In this document: positions 6,970 to 41,937 of the stretch, in pieces | Layout: each line of letters starts with the position of its first letter | Position numbering within the stretch: the first letter of the stretch is position 1 | Assembly (NCBI RefSeq): GCF_013315695.1 | Contig: NZ_CP054353.1 | From: Escherichia coli | GTDB taxonomy: Bacteria; Pseudomonadota; Gammaproteobacteria; Enterobacterales; Enterobacteriaceae | Reading direction: 5' to 3' (one strand) | DNA: 64,000 bases | Notes under the pieces: model-generated | What the model was told of the DNA's origin: nothing | What the model saw: the letters and a program-made list of their open reading frames with translations, nothing else | Databases searched by the model: none | Program-made: the position numbers and the translations under genes

Positions 6970-7629
6970 ATGGCTGTTATTCAAGATATCATCGCTGCGC
7001 TCTGGCAACACGACTTTGCCGCGCTGGCGGATCCTCATATTGTTAGCGTTGTTTACTTTGTCATGTTTGCCACGCTGTTTTTAGAAAACGGCCTGCTGCC
7101 CGCCTCATTTTTGCCAGGCGACAGCTTGTTGATATTGGCTGGCGCATTGATTGCCCAGGGGGTTATGGATTTTCTGCCTACGATTGCGATTCTGACCGCC
7201 GCAGCAAGTCTGGGCTGCTGGCTAAGTTATATTCAGGGGCGCTGGTTAGGAAATACCAAAACGGTGAAAGGCTGGCTGGCACAGCTTCCTGCTAAATATC
7301 ACCAGCGCGCCACCTGCATGTTTGACCGCCACGGTCTGCTGGCGCTGCTGGCTGGACGTTTTCTTGCATTTGTCCGTACGCTGCTGCCAACCATGGCAGG
7401 AATTTCCGGTTTGCCAAACCGCCGTTTCCAGTTTTTCAACTGGTTAAGCGGATTGCTGTGGGTCAGCGTGGTAACCAGTTTCGGCTATGCCTTAAGTATG
7501 ATTCCGTTCGTTAAACGCCATGAAAATCAGGTAATGACGTTCCTGATGATCCTGCCAATTGCCTTGTTAACCGCTGGCTTGTTAGGCACGCTGTTTGTGG
7601 TGATTAAAAAAAAATACTGTAACGCCTGA
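6970..7629 (+). CDS. yghB: DedA-family inner membrane protein
   Basis: 219 aa, multiple TM helices. Confidence 0.85.
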
Positions 7630-7668
7630 CGATTTTCCCCGTTCCCGGTTGCTGTACCGGGAACGTAT

Positions 7669-8625
7669 TTAATTCCCCTGCATCGCCCGCATTCTTGCCG
7701 CATCTTCCCCCGGCGTCACACCAAAGTAACGTTTAAACTCACGGCTAAATTGCGATGCGCTTTCGTAACCGACGCGCATCGCTGCCGCACTGGCTTTCAT
7801 GCCGTCGTGGATAATCATCATCCGCGCCTTATGCAGACGGTAATTCTTCAAATACTGCAACGGCGAGGTGCTGGTGACAGACTTAAAATTATGGTGGAAC
7901 GTCGATACGCTCATGTTGGCTTCTGCCGCCAGTTGCTCGACGCTCAGGTTTTCGGTGTATTTATTCTCAATCCGTTTCAGCACGCGGCTAATCAGGCTGA
8001 AGTGAGTCTGGCGACTGACCAGCGCCAGTAACGCGCCGCCGCAAGGTCCGGTCAGCACGTAGTACAGAATTTCGCGGATGATCTGTTTGCCGAGAATACG
8101 CGCATCCAGTGGTCGCTCCATCACGTCGAGTAACCGCTCCGCCGCGCATAAAATCTCTTCTGATAACGTGGCAGAGTTAATCCCGCTGGCTGCCATCGAC
8201 GGCTGGAAATGCTCATCTTCGCCAATGTCCATCAACAGTTCCTGTAACTGCAAAATATCGACATTGAGACGCAACCCTGCCAGCGGCACCTCTGACGTGG
8301 CATAGGTTTCGCACTCAAACGGCAACGGCACCGTCAGCAGCAGGTATTCATTGGCATCATAACGAAACACGCGTTCATTGATATAACCGATTTTATGCCC
8401 GGAGAAGAGAATTATGATGCCAGGCTCGTACATTACCGGTGTACGTGCGAAAGGCGTCTCGCCATACAACAAACGCACATCGGGCAACAGCTCTGACAAA
8501 CCATTTTCTTTATTTTTCAGTTTATTAACTTTATCCGCCAGCAAGCGGCAAATCTCTTCACGTTTCATATCGCGTAATTTCTTAGGAATAATGCGGCAAT
8601 TTGATTGTGCGCAATTTTGTAGCAT
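7669..8625 (-). CDS. yqhC: AraC-family transcriptional activator
   Basis: 318 aa from the internal Met; C-terminal AraC-type HTH; divergent from yqhD. Confidence 0.8.
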
Positions 8626-8761
8626 TTCTCCAGCACTCTGGAGAAATAGGCAAGACATTGGCAGAAATGAGCATTGAGAGCCAGGGCGCTGGCGATCACA
8701 ATGAAAAACATCAGGCAGATCGTTCTCTGCCCTCATATTGGCCCAGCAAAGGGAGCAAGTA

Positions 8762-9925
8762 ATGAACAACTTTAATCTGCACACCCCAACCCGCATTCTG
8801 TTTGGTAAAGGCGCAATCGCTGGTTTACGCGAACAAATTCCTCACGATGCTCGCGTATTGATTACCTACGGCGGCGGCAGCGTGAAAAAAACCGGCGTTC
8901 TCGATCAAGTTCTGGATGCCCTGAAAGGCATGGACGTGCTGGAATTTGGCGGTATTGAGCCAAACCCGGCTTATGAAACGCTGATGAACGCCGTGAAACT
9001 GGTTCGCGAACAAAAAGTGACTTTCCTGCTGGCGGTTGGCGGCGGTTCTGTACTGGACGGCACCAAATTTATCGCCGCAGCGGCTAACTATCCGGAAAAT
9101 ATCGATCCGTGGCACATTCTACAAACGGGCGGTAAAGAGATTAAAAGCGCCATCCCGATGGGCTGTGTGCTGACGCTGCCAGCAACCGGTTCAGAATCCA
9201 ACGCCGGTGCGGTGATCTCCCGTAAAACCACAGGCGACAAGCAGGCATTCCATTCTGCCCATGTTCAACCCGTATTTGCCGTGCTCGATCCGGTTTATAC
9301 CTACACCCTGCCGCCGCGTCAGGTGGCTAACGGTGTAGTGGACGCTTTTGTACACACCGTGGAACAGTATGTTACTAAACCGGTTGATGCCAAAATTCAG
9401 GACCGTTTCGCAGAAGGCATTTTGTTGACGCTGATCGAAGATGGTCCGAAAGCCCTGAAAGAGCCAGAAAACTACGATGTGCGCGCCAACGTCATGTGGG
9501 CGGCGACGCAGGCGCTGAACGGTTTGATTGGCGCTGGCGTACCGCAGGACTGGGCAACGCATATGCTGGGCCACGAACTGACTGCGATGCACGGTCTGGA
9601 TCACGCGCAAACACTGGCTATCGTCCTGCCTGCACTGTGGAATGAAAAACGCGATACCAAGCGCGCTAAGCTGCTGCAATATGCTGAACGCGTCTGGAAC
9701 ATCACTGAAGGTTCCGACGATGAGCGTATTGACGCCGCGATTGCCGCAACCCGCAATTTCTTTGAGCAATTAGGCGTGCCTACCCACCTCTCCGACTACG
9801 GTCTGGACGGCAGCTCCATCCCGGCTTTGCTGAAAAAACTGGAAGAGCACGGCATGACCCAACTGGGCGAAAATCATGACATTACGCTGGATGTCAGCCG
9901 CCGTATATACGAAGCCGCCCGCTAA
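8762..9925 (+). CDS. yqhD: NADPH-dependent iron-type alcohol/aldehyde reductase
   Basis: 387 aa from [17 protein letters not shown]... Confidence 0.9.
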
Positions 9926-29699: not shown

Positions 29700-30359
29700 A
29701 TGCGAATTTTACTGATAGAAGATGACATGCTGATTGGCGACGGCATCAAAACGGGCCTTAGTAAAATGGGTTTTAGCGTCGACTGGTTTACACAAGGTCG
29801 TCAGGGAAAAGAGGCGCTATATAGCGCACCTTATGATGCGGTGATCCTGGATTTAACCTTACCGGGCATGGATGGTCGCGATATTTTGCGCGAATGGCGA
29901 GAAAAAGGTCAGCGTGAGCCGGTTTTGATCCTGACCGCGCGCGATGCGCTGGCGGAACGTGTAGAAGGGCTGCGTCTGGGAGCTGACGATTATCTGTGTA
30001 AACCTTTTGCGTTGATAGAAGTCGCCGCCAGGCTGGAAGCTCTGATGCGCCGAACCAACGGCCAGGCCAGCAACGAGCTGCGCCACGGCAACGTCATGCT
30101 CGACCCCGGCAAACGTATCGCCACGCTGGCTGGCGAACCCTTAACGCTGAAGCCAAAAGAATTTGCCCTGCTGGAATTACTGATGCGTAACGCTGGTCGG
30201 GTACTGCCGCGCAAACTGATTGAAGAGAAACTGTATACCTGGGACGAAGAGGTCACCAGTAATGCCGTTGAAGTGCATGTGCATCATCTGCGACGCAAAC
30301 TCGGCAGTGATTTTATTCGTACCGTTCATGGTATTGGCTACACATTAGGTGAGAAATGA
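29700..30359 (+). CDS. qseB: OmpR-family response regulator
   Basis: 219 aa; receiver plus winged-helix domains. Confidence 0.9.
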
Positions 30360-31705
30360 AATTTACCCAACGTCTTAGTCTGCGAGTCAGGCTAACGCTA
30401 ATCTTTTTAATTCTGGCCTCGGTGACCTGGCTGCTTTCCAGCTTTGTCGCCTGGAAACAAACAACGGATAACGTCGATGAGTTGTTCGACACCCAACTGA
30501 TGCTGTTTGCCAAACGGTTAAGTACGCTCGATCTCAACGAAATCAACGCGGCGGATCGCATGGCACAGACGCCAAATAAATTAAAACACGGTCATGTTGA
30601 TGACGATGCGCTGACCTTTGCCATCTTTACCCACGACGGCAGAATGGTCCTTAACGATGGCGATAATGGAGAAGATATTCCTTATAGCTATCAACGAGAA
30701 GGTTTTGCTGACGGGCAACTGGTGGGCGATAAAGATCAATGGCGTTTTGTCTGGATGACCTCACCTGATGGCAAATATCGCATTGTTGTTGGTCAGGAAT
30801 GGGAATACCGTGAAGACATGGCGCTGGCGATTGTTGCCGGACAATTGATCCCGTGGCTGGTCGCACTGCCGATTATGTTAATCATCATGATGGTACTACT
30901 GGGTCGTGAACTCGCGCCGCTGAACAAACTGGCGCTGGCACTACGTATGCGTGACCCAGACTCGGAAAAACCACTAAACGCGACGGGCGTACCCAGCGAA
31001 GTGCGCCCACTGGTTGAGTCGTTGAATCAACTGTTCGCCCGCACACATGCGATGATGGTTCGTGAACGACGCTTTACCTCCGACGCAGCTCACGAACTTC
31101 GTAGCCCGTTAACGGCGCTGAAAGTGCAAACCGAAGTTGCTCAGCTCTCTGACGATGATCCGCAGGCGCGGAAAAAAGCGCTGCTCCAATTACATTCCGG
31201 GATCGATCGCGCTACTCGTCTGGTTGATCAACTGCTCACGCTATCGCGGCTGGACTCACTGGATAACCTTCAGGACGTCGCGGAGATCCCGCTTGAAGAT
31301 CTCCTGCAATCGTCGGTGATGGATATTTACCACACGGCGCAGCAGGCGAAAATTGACGTGCGACTGACACTCAATGCCCACGGCATCAAACGTACCGGAC
31401 AACCGCTGTTGCTAAGTTTGTTGGTACGAAACCTTCTGGATAACGCCGTGCGCTACAGTCCACAGGGCTGCGTGGTGGACGTCACGCTGAATGCCGATAA
31501 TTTCATCGTGAGGGATAACGGCCCCGGTGTGACGCCAGAGGCACTGGCGAGAATTGGCGAACGCTTCTATCGCCCACCCGGACAAACCGCTACCGGCAGT
31601 GGACTTGGGCTATCGATTGTCCAGCGAATCGCCAAGCTGCATGACATGAATGTTGAATTTGGGAATGCGGAACAAGGTGGATTTGAGGCGAAGGTAAGCT
31701 GGTAA
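30356..31705 (+). CDS. qseC: sensor histidine kinase
   Basis: 449 aa; H-box (AAHELRSPL); 4-bp overlap with qseB. Confidence 0.9.
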
Positions 31706-31814: not shown

Positions 31815-32396
31815 ATGAGCAACATCCTGATTATCAACGGCGCGAAAAAATTCGCCCACTCCAATGGTCAACTGAACGACACCCTGACCGAAGTCGCGGA
31901 TGGCACACTGCGCGACCTCGGGCATGATGTCCGCATCGTTCGCGCCGACAGCGACTACGATGTCAAAGCGGAAGTACAAAACTTTCTCTGGGCTGATGTG
32001 GTGATCTGGCAGATGCCAGGCTGGTGGATGGGCGCGCCGTGGACAGTGAAAAAATACATTGATGATGTATTCACCGAAGGTCACGGGACGCTGTATGCCA
32101 GCGATGGTCGTACCCGCAAAGATCCGTCGAAAAAATACGGCTCCGGCGGCCTGGTACAGGGCAAAAAATATATGCTTTCTCTGACCTGGAACGCACCAAT
32201 GGAAGCCTTCACCGAAAAAGATCAGTTCTTCCACGGCGTTGGTGTTGACGGTGTGTACCTGCCGTTCCATAAAGCAAACCAATTCCTTGGCATGGAACCG
32301 CTGCCGACATTTATCGCTAATGACGTGATAAAAATGCCTGATGTTCCCCGCTATACTGAAGAATATCGCAAGCATCTTGTGGAAATTTTTGGTTAA
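31815..32396 (+). CDS. mdaB: NADPH:quinone oxidoreductase
   Basis: 193 aa flavodoxin-like. Confidence 0.9.
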   Translation: MSNILIINGAKKFAHSNGQLNDTLTEVADGTLRDLGHDVRIVRADSDYDVKAEVQNFLWADVVIWQMPGWWMGAPWTVKKYIDDVFTEGHGTLYASDGRTRKDPSKKYGSGGLVQGKKYMLSLTWNAPMEAFTEKDQFFHGVGVDGVYLPFHKANQFLGMEPLPTFIANDVIKMPDVPRYTEEYRKHLVEIFG

Positions 32397-32426: not shown

Positions 32427-32741
32427 ATGATTACAGTAATCGCAGAAATCCGTACTCGTCCTGGTCAACATCACCGTCAGGCAGTGTTGGATCAGTTTGC
32501 TAAAATCGTTCCAACCGTACTGAAAGAAGAAGGTTGCCACGGCTATGCGCCAATGGTGGATTGCGCTGCTGGCGTGAGTTTCCAGTCTATGGCACCGGAT
32601 TCTATCGTGATGATTGAGCAGTGGGAAAGCATCGCGCATCTTGAAGCGCATCTGCAAACCCCGCACATGAAAGCATATAGCGAAGCCGTAAAAGGTGACG
32701 TGCTGGAGATGAATATTCGTATCCTGCAGCCGGGGCTTTGA
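32427..32741 (+). CDS. ygiN: quinol monooxygenase (ABM domain)
   Basis: 104 aa. Confidence 0.85.
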   Translation: MITVIAEIRTRPGQHHRQAVLDQFAKIVPTVLKEEGCHGYAPMVDCAAGVSFQSMAPDSIVMIEQWESIAHLEAHLQTPHMKAYSEAVKGDVLEMNIRILQPGL

Positions 32742-32785
32742 CATTTCTAAAAAGAGGCCGGTGCTGCTACCGGTCTCAGCCCAGA

Positions 32786-33673
32786 TTAGCCATTCTTTCT
32801 TCCCGTTTTCAGTCCTCGATGGAAATCGTTAATTCGCTTAATGGTTTTAACCGCACGCTGCGGCACTGCGGAAGCTACCGACCAGACAATCATTTCCAGA
32901 CACAACAATACCGTACCATGTAGCGGCGTTTTCCCTTTTTCATCCCCGCGCGGAACATGAATCACGATACTGGCGTCTTTGCTAAAACGTGAATCCAGCG
33001 CGTTTGTCAGCAAAATAACAGGGATCCCCAGCCGCCTCGCCTCACGAAGCGTTGTCAGCCCTTCCCGGTGCGCAGATTTTTGCGCCATCATGATCAGAAC
33101 ATCGCCACGTTGAAGCGCGATCAGTTGCTCGGCAAGGCCAATACCCGTACGGTTTAGTGCCGTGGCAGGCAAACCTATGCGGTTGAATAGTCGTGCGGTA
33201 TAGTCCGCCAGGATACCCGAAGCGCCAATGCCAAAAATAGCGACTTGCCGTGCCTGCACCAACAACGCTACAGCTTGCGCAAGCGCGTGGCGGTTTTCAG
33301 GCTCTGACAGGACATTACAGGTATACAAATGCCCTTCAAGAACAAAGTCGATTGCGGTGTTAACATCGCTCGTCAAGTTACTCACCGTCGTAGACATCTT
33401 TTCGCTGGAACTAAGGGCTGGACCAAGCCACTGTTCCAGAGTGCGTTTCAGATCACGCAGCCCGGCAAACCCCAGGGCCTGTATAGCCCTGATAACAGTG
33501 GCATCGGAAGTGTTCAACGTGGCCGCAATTTCCATCGCCGTTTGCTCGAGTACCACTTCACGATGCTCATTAATGTAGCTGGCGACAGCTCTTAACCCAG
33601 GCGTTAACTGACTCGCGCGAGTGCGAAAACGCTCACCAAAAATATCAACCCGCGCTTTATCTTTCTGGATCAT
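32786..33673 (-). CDS. RpiR/MurR-family regulator (HTH_6 plus SIS domain)
   Basis: 295 aa; last gene of the ABC transporter operon, 4-bp overlap with the binding-protein gene. Confidence 0.8.
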   Translation of the reverse strand: MIQKDKARVDIFGERFRTRASQLTPGLRAVASYINEHREVVLEQTAMEIAATLNTSDATVIRAIQALGFAGLRDLKRTLEQWLGPALSSSEKMSTTVSNLTSDVNTAIDFVLEGHLYTCNVLSEPENRHALAQAVALLVQARQVAIFGIGASGILADYTARLFNRIGLPATALNRTGIGLAEQLIALQRGDVLIMMAQKSAHREGLTTLREARRLGIPVILLTNALDSRFSKDASIVIHVPRGDEKGKTPLHGTVLLCLEMIVWSVASAVPQRAVKTIKRINDFHRGLKTGRKNG

Positions 33674-34617
33674 TTAGCCTCCGGTAGAGGTCGCCCTGCA
33701 ATTTGTGATTGTATCTGCGCAGCCATCAGCCCCAGTGATGCAAAGGAGTTAGAAATTGCCTCTTCACGAGAAATCAGCACATAACGCCCGGAACGACAGG
33801 CAGTCAGAAACTGACACCATCCCGGCATGACTTTTTCCATTGCTGCCAGCTCATCCTGAGGTTTACCACCGGTGTCACCGCGCCAGGTTGCAAAAACAAA
33901 ATCGGCATCCAGTTCAGGTAAACGCTCCGCGCTCACATCCATTCGCCCACCTTCAGGAATGCTCTCAATCAGCGGCGGAAAACGAAAACCAGCATCGCGT
34001 AATACCCGCCCCAGCGAATGATAGCTATGCATCACATTAATTTTTCCCTGGTTTGCCTGAATCACCGATACCGTTATTTTTTGGCTGTCCAGCGTCGCCT
34101 TCAGCGCATTGATTTGTGCCTGATAGCGGCGTTCAAGTATCGCCAGCTGCGACTGCGTTCCTGTAAGTTCTGCCAGCTTGCGATAGATTTCTGGCGCGCC
34201 CCCTTTGAGATGATCAATGCTCACCGTGGGCGCAATTTTTTCAAGTTGTTCAATGGGCGTATTACGGGTCGGTTCTGTGATGATCAAGTCAGGCTTTGCC
34301 GCCACAATCGCTTCAATATCAATATCAGCGGTACCAATAAAGGCGATCGATGAATTATCAAAGTCGACACCTGTCAATAACGCGCCAGATCGAATGAAAT
34401 GGCTACCGTCAGGCCGAGTTCGCCCGTGGCTGGCGACAGGAGGTACACCGAGCTCAATCAGAGGAATAGTGATATCAAGATCGTGTAAAGAGACAATTCT
34501 CTTTGGATGAGCAGGAACAGTGACTTTGCGCCCTAAATCATCAGTAAATACCTGAACAGGTTCTGTTGCACGGGAAAAAAATGACAACAGTATCAGCAGA
34601 GAAAAAAATAAACGCAT
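33670..34617 (-). CDS. periplasmic iron-siderophore/cobalamin-type ABC substrate-binding protein
   Basis: About 315 aa from MRLFFSLLILLSFFSRA (signal peptide); GGGAG RBS. Confidence 0.8.
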   Translation of the reverse strand: MRLFFSLLILLSFFSRATEPVQVFTDDLGRKVTVPAHPKRIVSLHDLDITIPLIELGVPPVASHGRTRPDGSHFIRSGALLTGVDFDNSSIAFIGTADIDIEAIVAAKPDLIITEPTRNTPIEQLEKIAPTVSIDHLKGGAPEIYRKLAELTGTQSQLAILERRYQAQINALKATLDSQKITVSVIQANQGKINVMHSYHSLGRVLRDAGFRFPPLIESIPEGGRMDVSAERLPELDADFVFATWRGDTGGKPQDELAAMEKVMPGWCQFLTACRSGRYVLISREEAISNSFASLGLMAAQIQSQIAGRPLPEAK

Positions 34618-34627
34618 ATAACTCCCG

Positions 34628-35677
34628 TTAAAAACTGTTCCTGCGCTGCCAGAGCAGTAGCAAAAAAAATGGTCCACCAATCAGTGAGATAATGATTCCG
34701 GCAGGCAGTTGCAAAGGCAAAAAAGCCAAACGACCAATGCTATCCGCCAGAATAACTAACAACGCCCCCGATACCGCACTCCCCAGCAGTAATGTCGTCT
34801 GCCCGCCACGTAGAATAAAACGTGATATATGGGGTGCTATCAATCCGACAAAACCGATGTTACCAACACACGAAACGCAGACGGCTGTCAGGATTATGGG
34901 TGCGGCGACACGTAACAACGCCAGACGAGAACTATTCACCCCTAACCCGGTTGCAACCTGATGACCAAGCAGAGCGATATCCGCCGTCCTGGCGGTGAAC
35001 AGCAATAAAAGAGCGGCTGGCAACATCCAACAGGCTGAAATACCGACTAACATCCAGTTAGCTGCATGCAGGCTTCCCGATAACCACATCAATGCAGTTT
35101 GTACATCTCGAACATCTGCAGTGGTCATAAATACACCGATACCGGCGGCGAAAAACCAAGAAACACCAATACCAATCAGAACAAATCGCGGGCGGGAAAT
35201 ATCGCGCGCACAAAAAATCACGATTAAAGCCACCAACAGGCCACCAGCAAGACCAGCCACTGGACGCCAGAACACTCCCAGCATTGGAAACTGGAAAATC
35301 AGCCACAGCACAGCCACGCTACATCCTTCTTTGACGCCGATTAACCCAGGATCGGCAAGGCCGTTACGTGCAATGGATTGCATTGCGGCCCCTGCCATAC
35401 CTAACATGGCCCCGCATAGCAATGCCATGATGACTCTCGGCAAGCGAATATCCTGCACAATATAACGTGCGTCTGTGCTTACGTTTTCTGGAGCAAACAA
35501 CGCTCGTCCTACTTCCGATGCCGGAACAGAGAAAGAACCCTGCATCAGACCGAATATCAGTATTCCAACCGCAAACAGAAACAGCCCACCAAGCAACAGC
35601 AGATTTTTAGGGCGTACCAGTGTCGAAAACTTACCAACACGTAGTGGGCGTAGCCCGACGTTCATTATCCGACTCAT
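34628..35677 (-). CDS. FecCD-family ABC permease
   Basis: 349 aa polytopic membrane protein. Confidence 0.8.
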   Translation of the reverse strand: MSRIMNVGLRPLRVGKFSTLVRPKNLLLLGGLFLFAVGILIFGLMQGSFSVPASEVGRALFAPENVSTDARYIVQDIRLPRVIMALLCGAMLGMAGAAMQSIARNGLADPGLIGVKEGCSVAVLWLIFQFPMLGVFWRPVAGLAGGLLVALIVIFCARDISRPRFVLIGIGVSWFFAAGIGVFMTTADVRDVQTALMWLSGSLHAANWMLVGISACWMLPAALLLLFTARTADIALLGHQVATGLGVNSSRLALLRVAAPIILTAVCVSCVGNIGFVGLIAPHISRFILRGGQTTLLLGSAVSGALLVILADSIGRLAFLPLQLPAGIIISLIGGPFFLLLLWQRRNSF

Positions 35678-36657
35678 TTGAACATCCTCGTCGCCATAAT
35701 GACAAAAACAGGCGCACCAACTAACGCCGTCATGACACCGGTCGCTAATTCATGGGGCGTGAAAAGCGTACGGGCAATAATATCTGCCAGTAATAACAAA
35801 AGTGCGCCGACACAAGCTGAAAGAGGGAGCAGAACGCGCAGATCCGCTGATACCAGGCGCCGGACAATCTGCGGTACTAGCAGGCCGACAAAACCAATGG
35901 GGCCAGCAATCGATACGGCTGCGCCACAGAGCAACGCGATCGCAAGCAGGGTGAATGTTCGCGTGCGGAGTACAGAGACGCCCAGCCCCTGCGCCATGCG
36001 ATCGCCCAGTGCCAACATGTTAAGGGAGGGTGCAAGGTAAAGGGCTAACACAAATCCCCCCAGAGAAAACCAGGCGGACGTACCCAGCGTCGCCCAATCC
36101 TGCCCCGCTAAATCACCTGCTAGCCATGTCCGCATCGCCAGCAGTGTTTGTTCGTCAAGAATCAGGATTGCAGCCGTTATTGAGGACACGAACGCCGATA
36201 GCGCCACGCCGCATAAAGTAACTTTCATTGGCGTTAACCCTGAACGCCCTGCGGAGGAAAGCAGCAATATCAACAGGAACAATAACGCGCCGCCCGTAGA
36301 TGCCAGCAGTGGGCGTCCAACCGGAAAGGCCAGCCCAAGCGCACTGGCAGCAACGACAGCAAGAGCGGCTCCGGCATTTAAGCCTAAAATATGTGGCTCC
36401 CCCAATGGGTTACGAATGACAGCCTGCAACAAAGCACCAGCAACTCCAAGAGAAGCACCGGTAAGCAATGCTGCCGCTAAACGCGGCAAACGGAGTCTTA
36501 CAATTACGTTGTGATCGAAGTTTTGCGGTTCAAAATGAAGAAATGCCTGCAATACCGTTTGTGGTGCAATAAATCGGGCACCAATCCCTGGATATACCAC
36601 GCATCCCACCAGCAGTAAGGCGAGGAAAATTACAGTAACCAGCCCTGTGCGCATCAT
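35674..36657 (-). CDS. FecCD-family ABC permease
   Basis: 327 aa; 4-bp overlap with the neighbouring genes. Confidence 0.8.
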   Translation of the reverse strand: MMRTGLVTVIFLALLLVGCVVYPGIGARFIAPQTVLQAFLHFEPQNFDHNVIVRLRLPRLAAALLTGASLGVAGALLQAVIRNPLGEPHILGLNAGAALAVVAASALGLAFPVGRPLLASTGGALLFLLILLLSSAGRSGLTPMKVTLCGVALSAFVSSITAAILILDEQTLLAMRTWLAGDLAGQDWATLGTSAWFSLGGFVLALYLAPSLNMLALGDRMAQGLGVSVLRTRTFTLLAIALLCGAAVSIAGPIGFVGLLVPQIVRRLVSADLRVLLPLSACVGALLLLLADIIARTLFTPHELATGVMTALVGAPVFVIMATRMFK

Positions 36658-37463
36658 ACTTTTTCTACACCACGAAACGGCATGAAGAACGGCTTTCCCG
36701 TCAGAGGATTTATTGATGCGTGAACATCAACGTCAAAGACAGCTTTTACCAGCTCAGGCGTGCAATGCTCCCCCTCATTCAACACACGCACCACTTTCCC
36801 CTGGCGTAAAAATATCAACGTATCGCCATAATTGACGGCAAAATTCAGATCATGCAACACCACGACGACTGTACGCCCGTGATGACGTGTTAAATCATGT
36901 AATAACTCAAGAATTTCAACCTGATAACGTAAATCAAGCCAGGTTGTGGGTTCATCCAGCAGGATATAAGGCGTCTTTTGCGCCAACACCATCGCAATCC
37001 AGCAACGCTGACGCTGCCCGCCAGAGAGTTTTTCAACAGGTAAATGTGCAAACTCCTGCGTACCCGTTAATTTCAGGGCCTCTTCTACCGCCAGCTCATC
37101 GGCGTCGCTCCATTGACGAATGAAATTCTGCCAGGGAAAACGCCCACGCGACACCAGTTCATAAACGGTTAAGCCCTCCGGCAATAATGGCGACTGCGGC
37201 AAGATCCCAAGTCTACGGGATAACGCTTTCGTTGGTTGCTCGTGAATCGCTTTGCCATCAAGCAATATCGAACCGCCCATGGGTTGCAAGATACGTGCAA
37301 TGGTGCTGAGCAACGTCGACTTTCCACAGCCGTTTGCCCCAACCAGAACGGTCATTTTTTCTGTGGGAACGGAGAAAGAAACACCATCAACAATGATCTT
37401 CTTGTGATACCCGGCAGAAACATTGTCGAGGATCAGCCCCTGCCCTTTTGCGTTATGTGCCAC
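36654..37463 (-). CDS. ABC transporter ATP-binding protein (FecE/FepC-like)
   Basis: 269 aa; Walker A GANGCGKST, signature LSGGQRQR. Confidence 0.85.
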   Translation of the reverse strand: MAHNAKGQGLILDNVSAGYHKKIIVDGVSFSVPTEKMTVLVGANGCGKSTLLSTIARILQPMGGSILLDGKAIHEQPTKALSRRLGILPQSPLLPEGLTVYELVSRGRFPWQNFIRQWSDADELAVEEALKLTGTQEFAHLPVEKLSGGQRQRCWIAMVLAQKTPYILLDEPTTWLDLRYQVEILELLHDLTRHHGRTVVVVLHDLNFAVNYGDTLIFLRQGKVVRVLNEGEHCTPELVKAVFDVDVHASINPLTGKPFFMPFRGVEKV

Positions 37464-37717
37464 GTGTACGCCAACTTAATCAAAGACAAACAAAAATAAA
37501 ACTCATTCTCCTTTGAGAGTTTGACGCCACAAAATGTAGTAGTCAAGCAGTTAAAAGCCACACAAAAACAAGGTAAATAACAGGTAAAATATTTTTGCAC
37601 ATAAAAATAAAAACATTAAATATCAATAATTTAAAAGCAATCAAATTGTATAAACTTTTCATAAAAACACATGTAGCAATTTTTTGTTATTTCTCATTTA
37701 CTACTACATTACTGCGT

Positions 37718-37738
37718 GATTGAATGATTCTCAATTAC
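37718..37738. promoter_or_regulatory. candidate Fur box in the divergent promoter region of the iron-uptake locus
   Basis: gattgaatgattctcaattac, partial match to the Fur consensus, in a 370-bp AT-rich spacer. Confidence 0.3.
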
Positions 37739-37836
37739 ATATCCGATGGCGAAATAACAAACGGATAGTGCTTAGTGAGCAATAAGAAACAATTTTCACT
37801 CGCGACAATCCGCGAGTTTTTGGGATAACAGACTAA

Positions 37837-39978
37837 ATGGCTATGTTCACACCTTCATTCTCAGGACTCAAAGGTCGGGCGCTCTTTTCACTGCTTTTTG
37901 CGGCACCGATGATTCATGCAACAGACTCTGTAACGACCAAAGATGGCGAAACAATCACTGTTACAGCAGATGCAAATACCGCAACTGAGGCAACCGATGG
38001 TTATCAACCTCTGAGCACCTCTACGGCGACATTAACCGATATGCCGATGCTGGATATCCCGCAGGTGGTCAATACGGTTAGCGATCAGGTTCTGGAAAAC
38101 CAGAATGCGACAACGCTGGATGAGGCGCTTTATAACGTCAGTAACGTGGTACAGACCAATACATTAGGCGGGACTCAGGATGCTTTTGTACGCCGTGGGT
38201 TTGGCGCAAACCGGGATGGCTCCATCATGACCAACGGCCTGCGAACTGTACTTCCTCGCAGTTTCAACGCCGCCACAGAACGTGTGGAAGTGCTAAAAGG
38301 TCCGGCCTCCACGCTGTATGGCATTCTCGATCCTGGTGGATTGATTAACGTCGTGACCAAGCGCCCGGAAAAAACATTCCATGGTTCTGTCTCAGCCACG
38401 TCCTCCAGTTTTGGCGGAGGCACTGGGCAACTTGATATCACAGGTCCCATTGAAGGCACTCAGCTGGCATACCGCCTGACGGGGGAAGTGCAGGATGAAG
38501 ATTACTGGCGAAACTTCGGTAAAGAGCGCAGTACATTTATTGCCCCGTCACTCACCTGGTTTGGTGATAATGCAACAGTAACCATGCTCTATTCCCATCG
38601 GGACTATAAAACTCCGTTCGATCGTGGAACGATTTTCGACCTTACGACGAAACAGCCCGTAAACGTTGATCGAAAAATACGTTTTGACGAACCGTTTAAT
38701 ATTACAGATGGTCAGTCCGATCTGGCGCAACTCAACGCAGAATATCATCTCAATAGCCAGTGGACAGCGCGCTTTGATTACAGCTACAGCCAGGATAAAT
38801 ACAGCGACAATCAGGCTCGCGTTACCGCGTATGATGCAACGACAGGAACGCTGACACGGCGTGTTGATGCAACTCAGGGATCTACCCAGCGTATGCATTC
38901 TACTCGTGCGGATCTGCAAGGGAATGCTGATATTGCTGGGTTCTATAATGAGATTCTGGGTGGGGTGTCATATGAATATTATGATCTTCTGCGCACAGAT
39001 ATGATTCGCTGTAAAAACGCTAAAGATTTCAATATCTACAACCCCGTTTATGGCAATACCAGCAAATGCACAACGGTTTCGGCGTCGGACAGTGATCAGA
39101 CGATCAAACAGGAGAGCTACTCAGCGTATGCACAGGACGCGCTCTATCTGACCGATAACTGGATTGCCGTCGCCGGGATCCGCTATCAGTATTACACGCA
39201 GTATGCGGGTAAAGGCCGTCCTTTTAATGTCAATACTGACAGCCGCGATGAACAATGGACGCCCAAACTGGGGTTAGTCTACAAACTGACGCCATCGGTA
39301 TCCTTATTTGCCAATTATTCGCAAACATTTATGCCGCAGTCGTCAATTGCCAGCTACATTGGCGATCTTCCACCGGAATCATCTAATGCTTACGAAGTCG
39401 GGGCAAAATTCGAGCTATTCGATGGTATCACCGCAGATATTGCGCTGTTTGATATCCATAAACGTAACGTGTTGTATACCGAAAGTATTGGTGATGAAAC
39501 CATTGCCAAAACGGCAGGCCGTGTTCGTTCAAGAGGGGTAGAAGTCGACCTTGCGGGAGCATTAACTGAAAACATTAATATCATTGCCAGCTACGGCTAT
39601 ACCGATGCTAAGGTTCTGGAGGATCCTGATTATGCAGGGAAACCATTGCCGAATGTTCCTCGTCATACCGGTTCGCTATTCCTGACTTATGACATTCATA
39701 ACATGCCTGGCAATAACACACTGACGTTTGGCGGTGGTGGACATGGCGTAAGCCGTCGTTCGGCAACCAATGGGGCTGACTATTATCTGCCAGGCTATTT
39801 CGTTGCCGATGCCTTCGCTGCATACAAAATGAAATTGCAGTATCCGGTCACACTGCAATTAAACGTCAAAAACCTGTTTGATAAAACGTATTACACCTCT
39901 TCCATCGCCACAAATAATCTGGGGAATCAGATTGGCGATCCGCGTGAAGTGCAATTCACGGTGAAAATGGAATTTTGA
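37837..39978 (+). CDS. TonB-dependent outer-membrane siderophore-type receptor
   Basis: 713 aa; signal peptide; TonB-box-like ETITVTA; C-terminal aromatic residue (F). Confidence 0.85.
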   Translation: MAMFTPSFSGLKGRALFSLLFAAPMIHATDSVTTKDGETITVTADANTATEATDGYQPLSTSTATLTDMPMLDIPQVVNTVSDQVLENQNATTLDEALYNVSNVVQTNTLGGTQDAFVRRGFGANRDGSIMTNGLRTVLPRSFNAATERVEVLKGPASTLYGILDPGGLINVVTKRPEKTFHGSVSATSSSFGGGTGQLDITGPIEGTQLAYRLTGEVQDEDYWRNFGKERSTFIAPSLTWFGDNATVTMLYSHRDYKTPFDRGTIFDLTTKQPVNVDRKIRFDEPFNITDGQSDLAQLNAEYHLNSQWTARFDYSYSQDKYSDNQARVTAYDATTGTLTRRVDATQGSTQRMHSTRADLQGNADIAGFYNEILGGVSYEYYDLLRTDMIRCKNAKDFNIYNPVYGNTSKCTTVSASDSDQTIKQESYSAYAQDALYLTDNWIAVAGIRYQYYTQYAGKGRPFNVNTDSRDEQWTPKLGLVYKLTPSVSLFANYSQTFMPQSSIASYIGDLPPESSNAYEVGAKFELFDGITADIALFDIHKRNVLYTESIGDETIAKTAGRVRSRGVEVDLAGALTENINIIASYGYTDAKVLEDPDYAGKPLPNVPRHTGSLFLTYDIHNMPGNNTLTFGGGGHGVSRRSATNGADYYLPGYFVADAFAAYKMKLQYPVTLQLNVKNLFDKTYYTSSIATNNLGNQIGDPREVQFTVKMEF

Positions 39979-39980
39979 TC

Positions 39981-40022
39981 AAAAAAGCCCGGTATACACT
40001 TGTATACCGGGCTATTTTTTAT
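39981..40022. terminator. bidirectional terminator between the receptor gene and parE
   Basis: Hairpin agcccggtatacacttgtataccgggct flanked by an A-run and a T-run. Confidence 0.55.

Positions 40023-40041: not shown

Positions 40042-41937
<1,896 letters not shown>

Follow-up and report, generated by a model that had tools for sequence, protein, structure and literature searches.

Gene content and identity of the locus

The window analysed here is a stretch of 64,000 nucleotides (nt) of Escherichia coli (contig NZ_CP054353.1, assembly GCF_013315695.1), and this study concerns its fit locus, which lies between ygiN and parE. The open reading frame (ORF) list of the window contains six intact ORFs at this position: a five-gene operon, fitBCDER, and the divergent fitA, which encodes a TonB-dependent receptor (Table 1). 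A previous description made from the letters alone, hereafter the sequence-only reading, had placed a five-gene operon and a divergent receptor of 713 amino acids (aa) between ygiN and parE, and its ORFs, coordinates and protein families all hold. It had also remarked that the layout resembles the Fit system of some E. coli strains. The resemblance was examined against the published reference system of strain i484, which was compared by means of its primers; the copy in strain CFT073 is c3771-c3775. All 17 fit primers in Table 2 of PMC2593036 map to the expected gene and strand with no or one mismatch, and the control primers of the same table (fepA, gst and polA) do not map on the window. The primers of the published 'fit promoter' map to 37457-37480 and 37794-37815, bracketing the intergenic region. 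In addition, residues 19-315 of FitE match chain residues 1-297 of PDB entries 3BE5/3BE6 (E = 2.2e-195), which are named as E. coli FitE (PMC10553834, PMC2966073). Gene order and RefSeq annotation also agree with Fit (fitA <> fitB-fitC-fitD-fitE-fitR). Because all fit primers map and FitE matches 3BE5/3BE6, the locus is, on these sequence grounds, the Fit system itself, an allele of the same locus and not a mere look-alike.

The published roles of the genes are receptor (fitA), ATPase (fitB), permeases (fitC and fitD), binding protein (fitE) and regulator (fitR) (Ouyang & Isaacson 2008, PMC2593036). Gene content, gene order, primers, FitE, the divergent promoter with Fur-type boxes and the terminal regulator with helix-turn-helix (HTH) and SIS domains are all the same as in the published system, and nothing of substance differs. 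The locus and its regulator are thus already known and do not constitute a new system; the locus, the regulator and the FitE structure have been in the literature since 2006-2009, which makes this a minor discovery as such. An account with transport and distribution data was reportedly also given by Ouyang and Isaacson in Infection and Immunity in 2006. The regulator, which had struck the sequence-only reading as unusual, was published in 2008 as FitR, with HTH and sugar-isomerase domains (PMC2593036). The FitR and Fur sites were left unmapped in that work, and the additions made here are a predicted operator, TGTAGTAGT, and a non-canonical loop in the SIS domain of FitR.

The genes of the operon are closely spaced. 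A 4-bp overlap, ATGA, joins fitB to fitC and fitE to fitR. The fitC/fitD overlap depends on the choice of start, since it exists only with the upstream ATG, and the RefSeq ATG is 12 nt downstream; fitD and fitE are separated by a gap of 10 nt that contains a GGGAG ribosome-binding site. The coupling by 4-bp overlaps described from the letters alone therefore stands for fitB/fitC and fitE/fitR, is conditional for fitC/fitD and fails for fitD/fitE. The maximal fitE ORF reaches a TTG at 34680; the RefSeq start is the ATG at 34617, which has the GGGAG site, and the TTG is probably not used. A scan of the locus with Rfam revealed no RNA family. Upstream of ygiN are the sensor kinase gene qseC (30356-31705) and mdaB (31815-32396), an ordinary conserved context that matches the RefSeq annotation of O157:H7.

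Table 1. Features of the fit locus and its flanks, with positions counted from the first letter of the window.
Feature	Position	Strand	Description
ygiN	32427-32741	+	Flanking gene, beyond fitR
Terminator-like hairpin	32758..32773	-	After fitR, closing the fitBCDER operon
fitR	32786..33673	-	295-aa RpiR/MurR-family repressor, last gene of the operon; ORF, Pfam, fitR primers map here
fitE	33670..34617	-	315-aa periplasmic class III (Peripla_BP_2) ferric-chelate binding protein; RefSeq start, fitE primers
fitD	34628..35677	-	FecCD-family permease; RefSeq start 35665, alternative ATG 35677 overlaps the fitC stop
fitC	35674..36657	-	FecCD-family permease, 327 aa
fitB	36654..37463	-	FecE-like ATP-binding cassette (ABC) ATPase, 269 aa, GTG start
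fitB/fitA divergent control region	37464..37836	.	373 bp, 31% G+C; holds the published 'fit promoter' fragment of the mobility shift assay
Fur-box-like site by fitB promoter	37492..37510	-	GAGAATGAGTTTTATTTTT in fitB sense; conservation lower than that of the box by fitA
Predicted FitR operator, copy B	37533..37546	-	TTGACTACTACATT in fitB sense; overlaps -35-like TTGACT
Predicted FitR operator, copy A	37697..37710	+	TTTACTACTACATT in fitA sense; inverted relative to copy B, 166 nt away
Fur box by fitA promoter	37720..37740	+	TTGAATGATTCTCAATTACAT; lies 10-11 nt from operator copy A, a fixed distance
fitA	37837..39978	+	713-aa TonB-dependent siderophore receptor; fitA primers map here
Bidirectional terminator hairpin	39986..40013	.	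Between the fitA and parE 3' ends; 12-bp stem, T-runs on both strands
parE	40042-41934	-	Flanking gene, beyond fitA

The control region and a predicted FitR operator

The regulation of fit has been studied genetically and in vitro (PMC2593036). FitR was described in 2008 as an HTH and SIS protein and as an auto-repressor; it binds the DNA between fitA and fitB, and its action is independent of Fur. Its over-expression represses fitA and fitB, a fitR knock-out de-represses both genes and complementation restores repression, and His-tagged FitR specifically shifts a 347-bp intergenic fragment, as seen by electrophoretic mobility shift. Expression increased 23 times in a fur mutant, 2.2 times in a fitR mutant and 52 times in the double mutant (PMC2593036). 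Direct binding of Fur has been reported at the CFT073 c3771-c3775 copy (PMC7157518).

Within this control region we identified a 14-nt inverted repeat, 13 of 14 positions matching, whose arms are copies A and B of Table 1. The whole 64-kb window has just two copies of its 10-mer core, ATGTAGTAGT, against none expected. When the intergenic regions of four genera were aligned, nearly all of the sequence was found to have diverged except for two islands: on the fitA side ATGTAATTGAGAATCATTCAA, followed after 10-11 nt by ATGTAGTAGTAAA, and on the fitB side TTGACTACTACAT. A larger set of related loci was obtained by scanning one genome per species, which gave 80 FitR-encoding loci, all from Enterobacterales, that were sorted by tblastn with the six window proteins. 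Full cassettes number 56 (53 of the 80 scanned loci plus L003-L005), and 17 loci are minimal, as described below. The element TGTAGTAGT, with at most one mismatch, is present in all 56 full cassettes and all 17 minimal loci, and a second, inverted copy was found in 54 of the 56, copy B being conserved as cTTGACTACTACAt. Copy B is also present in Tatumella and Pantoea sp. A4, at loci without an adjacent receptor, and the same composite element recurs in a high-G+C locus of Orrella (L007) whose FitR is 45% identical. Exact copies of TGTAGTAGT have a density of 4.1 per kb in the promoter regions and of 0.0066 per kb in 1.37 Mb of flanking DNA, a difference of about 620-fold. Because the element tracks the regulator, and not the receptor or the host, and because it lies within the fragment that FitR shifts in vitro, we predict that TGTAGTAGT is the FitR operator.

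Regarding Fur, the box on the fitA side has 12 of 19 matches to the Fur consensus in E. coli, and its 21-mer is at least 90% conserved in the set of 56 full cassettes; several minimal loci have TTGATAATCATTC in this place, with the Fur core GATAATCATT inside it. A separate Fur box adjacent to the predicted operator fits the published independence of FitR and Fur. The Fur-like site on the fitB side has 13 of 19 matches and is partly conserved in the four genera; it was not relied on, as it is weak in the consensus of the 56 loci. A sigma-70 consensus scan of the intergenic region returned no promoter under the scan criteria, and promoter positions were inferred from the -35-like hexamers alone (TTGACT and TTTACT). 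The distance between the two copies falls into classes of 164-166 nt (18 loci), 178 nt (8 loci) and 184-189 nt (29 loci). These spacings, of approximately 16, 17 and 18 helical turns, are suggestive in that they would be compatible with bridging by an oligomer.

Related loci in other bacteria

The FitR-encoding loci are distributed over more than 15 genera, including Escherichia, Enterobacter, Kosakonia, Phytobacter, Citrobacter, Klebsiella, Raoultella, Kluyvera, Erwinia, Pantoea, Tatumella, Serratia, Rahnella and Shimwellia. The 56 loci with the complete fitA<>fitBCDER cassette lie in various chromosomal neighbourhoods. The 17 minimal loci consist of a FitR-like gene (66-69% identity) divergent from a different TonB receptor, with no ABC genes. 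They occur in Pantoea, Serratia, Rahnella, Erwinia and some Enterobacter, and their receptor is FhuA/FoxA-like and 35-39% identical to FitA. Examples are L054 (7445-10870), L062, L065-L069, L072, L076, L078, L083 and L086-L089, which keep the Fur box and TGTAGTAGTAAA. A minimal module of regulator and receptor was absent from the papers searched.

The receptor also varies where the operon is retained. In Sodalis (L004, 3476-5602) and Shimwellia (L063, 1053-3329) fitBCDER is kept and the receptor has been swapped (36-38% identity), and in Tatumella (L052, L055 and L056) and Pantoea sp. A4 (L081) fitBCDER is kept with no adjacent receptor; all of these loci retain both operator copies. Since the receptor is swapped or lost while fitBCDER and both operator copies stay, the outer-membrane component appears to evolve as a separate module.

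Some cassettes are extended. In L003 (7007-10004), L046 and L050, fitE and fitR are separated by a 3-kb insert with genes for a PepSY_TM protein and for two proteins resembling phosphate-binding proteins of the PstS family. PepSY_TM is the Pfam family of the FoxB/FpvG-type siderophore reductases. In Orrella dioscoreae (L007, Burkholderiales), the 45%-identical FitR relative ends a co-directional cassette of receptor, ABC and two PstS-like genes; of the latter (7010-8946), one has a Pfam PBP_like_2 hit and the other a weak TIGR02136 match. The presence of PstS-like genes in a siderophore-type operon might bear on the chemistry of the substrate. L003 is labelled Pseudomonas cerasi (GCA_977069525.1); its FitR clusters with proteins of Erwinia sorbitola and it has enterobacterial-type phosphotransferase system (PTS) and glycosidase neighbours, and the label Pseudomonas probably reflects mis-assignment or contamination.

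Across the 80 loci, FitR-type genes are constantly accompanied only by genes for TonB receptors and FecCD transport. Genes for sugar kinases, isomerases, PTS components or glycosidases do not accompany the cassette with any consistency in this set.

FitR and its SIS pocket

Pfam identifies an HTH_6 domain (PF01418) in residues 15-81 of FitR (E = 1.1e-9) and a SIS domain (PF01380) in residues 138-247 (E = 1.3e-13). The protein scores far below every NCBIfam equivalog cut-off, and by this measure it is no orthologue of MurR, HexR, AlsR or a similar named regulator. An AlphaFold2 model built with 103 sequences has a mean predicted local distance difference test (pLDDT) score of 92.7 and contains a five-stranded alpha/beta domain. 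The top Foldseek matches of the model are RccR, NanR, MurR and 3SHO, with a probability of 1.00, and the TM-score reaches 0.85 on the SIS domain. The assignment of the regulator to the RpiR/SIS type, for which the sequence-only reading had named structure prediction as the check, is therefore sound: both domains and the SIS fold are present.

The phosphate loop is where FitR departs from its structural relatives. The loop of RccR (SQSGRS) and NanR (SSSGST) aligns to A197-Q-K-S-A-H202 of FitR, which is followed by R-E-G, so that A-Q-K-S-A-H-R-E-G stands in the place of the canonical S-x-S-G-x-S/T. Twelve orthologues (10 genera, 69-88% identity) show no variation at Q198, K199, S200, H202, R203, E204 and G205. 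The first SIS motif, G-x-G-x-S, is retained as GIGAS. A search of 1.84 billion representative proteins revealed 637 relatives of FitR at E < 1e-10. The canonical loop was found in none of the 97 full-length subfamily representatives that were aligned (down to 25% identity), most of which carry (L/M)AYG(R/K)xYxE in its place. The large HTH_6 and SIS branch formed by these 637 clusters (E < 1e-10; relatives P0121-P0269), which is non-canonical at the loop (FitR residues 193-206), also has a conserved PRG...LHG segment. Distant members of the subfamily with 35-52% identity (L006, L008 and L009) are not located beside siderophore or iron genes, and the link with iron uptake holds only for the inner FitR clade, down to about 45% identity. 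As far as can be read from sequence, FitR belongs to a broad non-canonical branch of RpiR proteins and forms within it a clade of its own with a distinctive basic loop.

FitR can be compared with RccR (8K3B, with 2-keto-3-deoxy-6-phosphogluconate, KDPG), HexR, NanR (4IVN, with N-acetylmannosamine-6-phosphate, ManNAc-6P) and MurR (7EN5/7EN7). It shares with them the N-terminal HTH_6 domain, the C-terminal SIS fold and the repressor function. The operator consensus of HexR is of the TGTA type, as in the predicted FitR element. However, FitR is only 16-24% identical to these proteins, its phosphate loop has been replaced, and its targets are iron-chelate transport genes and not sugar catabolism. 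Furthermore, its predicted operator consists of two copies that are not palindromic and stand about 166-188 nt from each other, whereas those proteins have one local palindrome.

These results bear on whether FitR responds to a sugar phosphate as SIS regulators such as HexR, RccR, MurR and NanR usually do, in connection with import of a sugar-containing siderophore or with a link between iron and carbon metabolism. The fold is a true SIS fold, and the nearest structures are bound to phosphosugars (RccR/KDPG, NanR/ManNAc-6P and MurR with N-acetylmuramic acid 6-phosphate); the GIGAS motif is retained, the basic residues of the substituted loop (K199, H202 and R203) could still hold a phosphate, and the extended cassettes carry the PstS-like genes. 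Nevertheless, the replacement of the canonical loop, invariant in the 12 orthologues and extending over all 97 representatives, removes the argument from homology for a sugar phosphate, and over the 80 loci, from more than 15 genera, no sugar gene keeps a consistent link with the cassette. We consider sensing of this kind improbable, and the suggestion of a sugar-containing substrate that had been made from the letters alone is not supported by the loop or by the gene neighbourhoods.

A second alternative is that FitR has no ligand and works as a feedback damper that limits overshoot of the transporter after Fur repression lifts, with the SIS domain serving oligomerisation only. SIS domains form dimer and tetramer interfaces in this family, as in the MurR and NanR structures. 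The published repression is modest (approximately 2-5 fold), was seen in plain lysogeny broth (LB) and is auto-regulatory, and no inducer was reported in the papers searched. On the other hand, the residues that occupy the canonical ligand site do not vary between genera and differ from those of the surrounding subfamily, which is expected for a specific pocket and not for a vestigial one. The retention of the regulator with different receptors in the minimal loci also suggests substrate-specific control. On balance, a ligand-independent damper seems rather unlikely.

Receptor, transporter and substrate

FitA scores 371.7 bits against TIGR01783, the model of TonB-dependent siderophore receptors with their plug and 22-strand barrel (cut-off 223.5). 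A TonB box, ETITVTA, can be read from the translation at residues 38-44 (37948-37968). The closest solved relatives of FitA are FetA, FoxA and FhuA (about 1e-48). The alignments with FoxA begin at chain residues 94-146 of FoxA and at residue 44 of FitA, and the predicted FitA chain is without an N-terminal signalling extension. Lacking a signalling domain of the FecA or FoxA type, FitA would not be expected to take part in surface signalling through an extracytoplasmic function (ECF) sigma factor.

In NCBIfam, FitC and FitD match FecCD, FitB is FecE-like and FitE is a binding protein of the Fe-siderophore type. Together with Pfam matches of the orthologous products, this makes FitBCDE an ABC importer of the FecCD/BtuCD type (type II) with a class III binding protein. 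FitE is nearest to the siderophore-binding proteins YfiY, FhuD, SirA and FepB. All six proteins stay below the NCBIfam equivalog cut-offs of the named systems (Fhu, Fec, Fep, Btu and others). The searches with receptor and binding protein that had been proposed with the sequence-only reading thus lead to 3BE5/3BE6 for FitE and to FetA, FoxA and FhuA for FitA, and the family scores bear out its description of an iron-siderophore-type ABC uptake locus with a TonB receptor, here a TonB-dependent, FecCD-type ferric-chelate locus.

Fit has the same components as the Fhu, Fec and Fep systems of K-12, namely a TonB receptor, a class III binding protein, FecCD permeases, an ATPase and repression by Fur. 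It differs from them in that its permeases are encoded by two separate genes and a cytoplasmic repressor is dedicated to it. As the scores of its proteins fall far short of the equivalog cut-offs for Fhu, Fec and Fep, its substrate is probably different from theirs.

One check named with the sequence-only reading was identity to a system in which both substrate and regulator are fully defined. The regulator is indeed defined (FitR, PMC2593036), but the substrate is not (PMC5907654, PMC9409007), which leaves room for substrates other than iron siderophores, for example a different metallophore, a cofactor of the haem or corrinoid-like kind, or iron complexed with a phosphorylated metabolite from host or plant. 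TonB systems with FecCD and Peripla_BP_2 components also carry vitamin B12, haem and other metallophores, and the family hits include BtuC and haem ATPases; some relatives add the PstS-like and PepSY_TM proteins. A non-siderophore substrate is nevertheless very unlikely in our judgement. FitA scores above the cut-off of the siderophore-receptor model, and its closest relatives are FetA, FoxA and FhuA, not BtuB or haem receptors, and the nearest relatives of FitE are likewise siderophore-binding proteins. The conserved Fur box, the published control by Fur and iron and the induction of Klebsiella fitA by iron limitation (PMC5907654) point to iron.

Distribution in E. coli and the insertion site

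Of 5426 complete E. coli genomes searched with megablast, 1870 (34%) carry the whole 7.7-kb stretch, in every case on the chromosome and between ygiN and parE. Carriers include O157:H7 and extraintestinal strains. In the other complete genomes, about two thirds, ygiN adjoins parE, which agrees with the statement in the sequence-only reading that the two genes are neighbours in K-12; where the 7.3-kb locus would stand, this empty site has a 47-bp spacer that contains a terminator hairpin. The junctions examined contain no direct repeats, integrase or insertion sequence (IS), and the G+C content of the locus is not anomalous, the AT-rich promoter region excepted. An origin as a mobile element was therefore rejected, the 47-bp spacer being simply swapped for the 7.3-kb locus. 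At the flanks, ygiN ends in QPGL here and in QPGI in an empty-site genome (window position 32741), and parE, after a synonymous change, has the stop TGA here and TAA in the empty-site genome (window position 40042). As the divergence reaches the last codons of ygiN and parE, the replaced segment extends slightly into both genes. The presence or absence of Fit already serves as a lineage marker in E. coli, and fitA is associated with extraintestinal pathogenic (ExPEC) and adherent-invasive (AIEC) strains.

A model for Fit regulation and its implications

Taking these results together, we consider it very probable that Fit is a Fur-controlled, TonB-dependent system for the uptake of a ferric chelate that the cell does not make itself, with two promoters repressed by Fur and by FitR acting through TGTAGTAGT, and with an effector that releases FitR. 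In the part of this model that is already published, FitA takes the ferric chelate across the outer membrane, FitE binds it in the periplasm, and FitC, FitD and FitB import it. The two divergent promoters are repressed independently by Fur-Fe2+ and by FitR, which, being encoded at the end of the operon, also represses its own synthesis. FitR would bind the inverted pair of TGTAGTAGT copies, each overlapping the -35/spacer region and standing beside a Fur box, an arrangement at each promoter that would explain additive and independent repression. A single FitR oligomer may bridge both copies (about 166, 178 or 188 nt apart). Release of FitR would be brought about by a small anionic effector in the remodelled SIS pocket (Q198, K199, S200, H202, R203, E204 and G205), most likely the imported chelate or its product and not a canonical sugar phosphate. 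Full induction would then require low iron together with the substrate.

Several points weigh against this model. The TGTAGTAGT copies overlap -35-like hexamers, and their conservation could partly reflect promoter function and not binding of FitR. The helical phasing rests on three or four spacing classes, a small number, and these are not independent in phylogeny. A FitR effector has yet to be reported, and in LB the repression amounts to only 2-5 fold; FitR could thus act with no ligand at all. The pocket may still be compatible with an effector that is anionic, or even phosphorylated, given that the new loop is basic and the first motif, GIGAS, is retained. The label 'ferric chelate' itself derives from homology, Fur control and published work. 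In 2018 the Fit substrate was called unknown, enterobactin being excluded (PMC5907654), and a 2022 paper describes FitA as still without functional data (PMC9409007). Our literature searches for a later assignment of the Fit substrate found nothing, and the hits for 'fitA' and 'FitE' were swamped by unrelated acronyms; searches for a link between RpiR proteins and siderophore receptors found nothing beyond the 2008 FitR paper.

Under the proposed model, FitR would be a locus-specific regulator layered on Fur, as are the AraC-type regulators PchR, YbtA and AlcR and FecIR signalling. The analogy is functional only: FitR belongs to a different family, is a repressor rather than an activator or a sigma factor, and its effector is hypothetical. 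A broader proposal, which we put forward tentatively, is that FitR-type proteins form an undescribed RpiR/SIS subfamily dedicated to TonB-dependent ferric-chelate uptake. Their Q-K-S-x-H-R-E-G pocket, rebuilt from a site for sugar phosphates, would sense the chelate or its product, the Fur box, the gap of 10-11 nt and TGTAGTAGTAAA would make up a fixed composite operator, possibly with looping of the DNA from one inverted copy to the other, and the module would have been reused, with varying receptors and transporters, across Enterobacterales and in Burkholderiales.

What the analysis offers beyond the known system is a candidate operator to mutate, a set of pocket residues and a series of natural variants (the minimal loci, the swapped receptors and the cassettes with PepSY_TM and PstS-like genes) that may narrow down the substrate. 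If the FitR subfamily does sense the chelate or its product, finding the effector would also identify the substrate of Fit.

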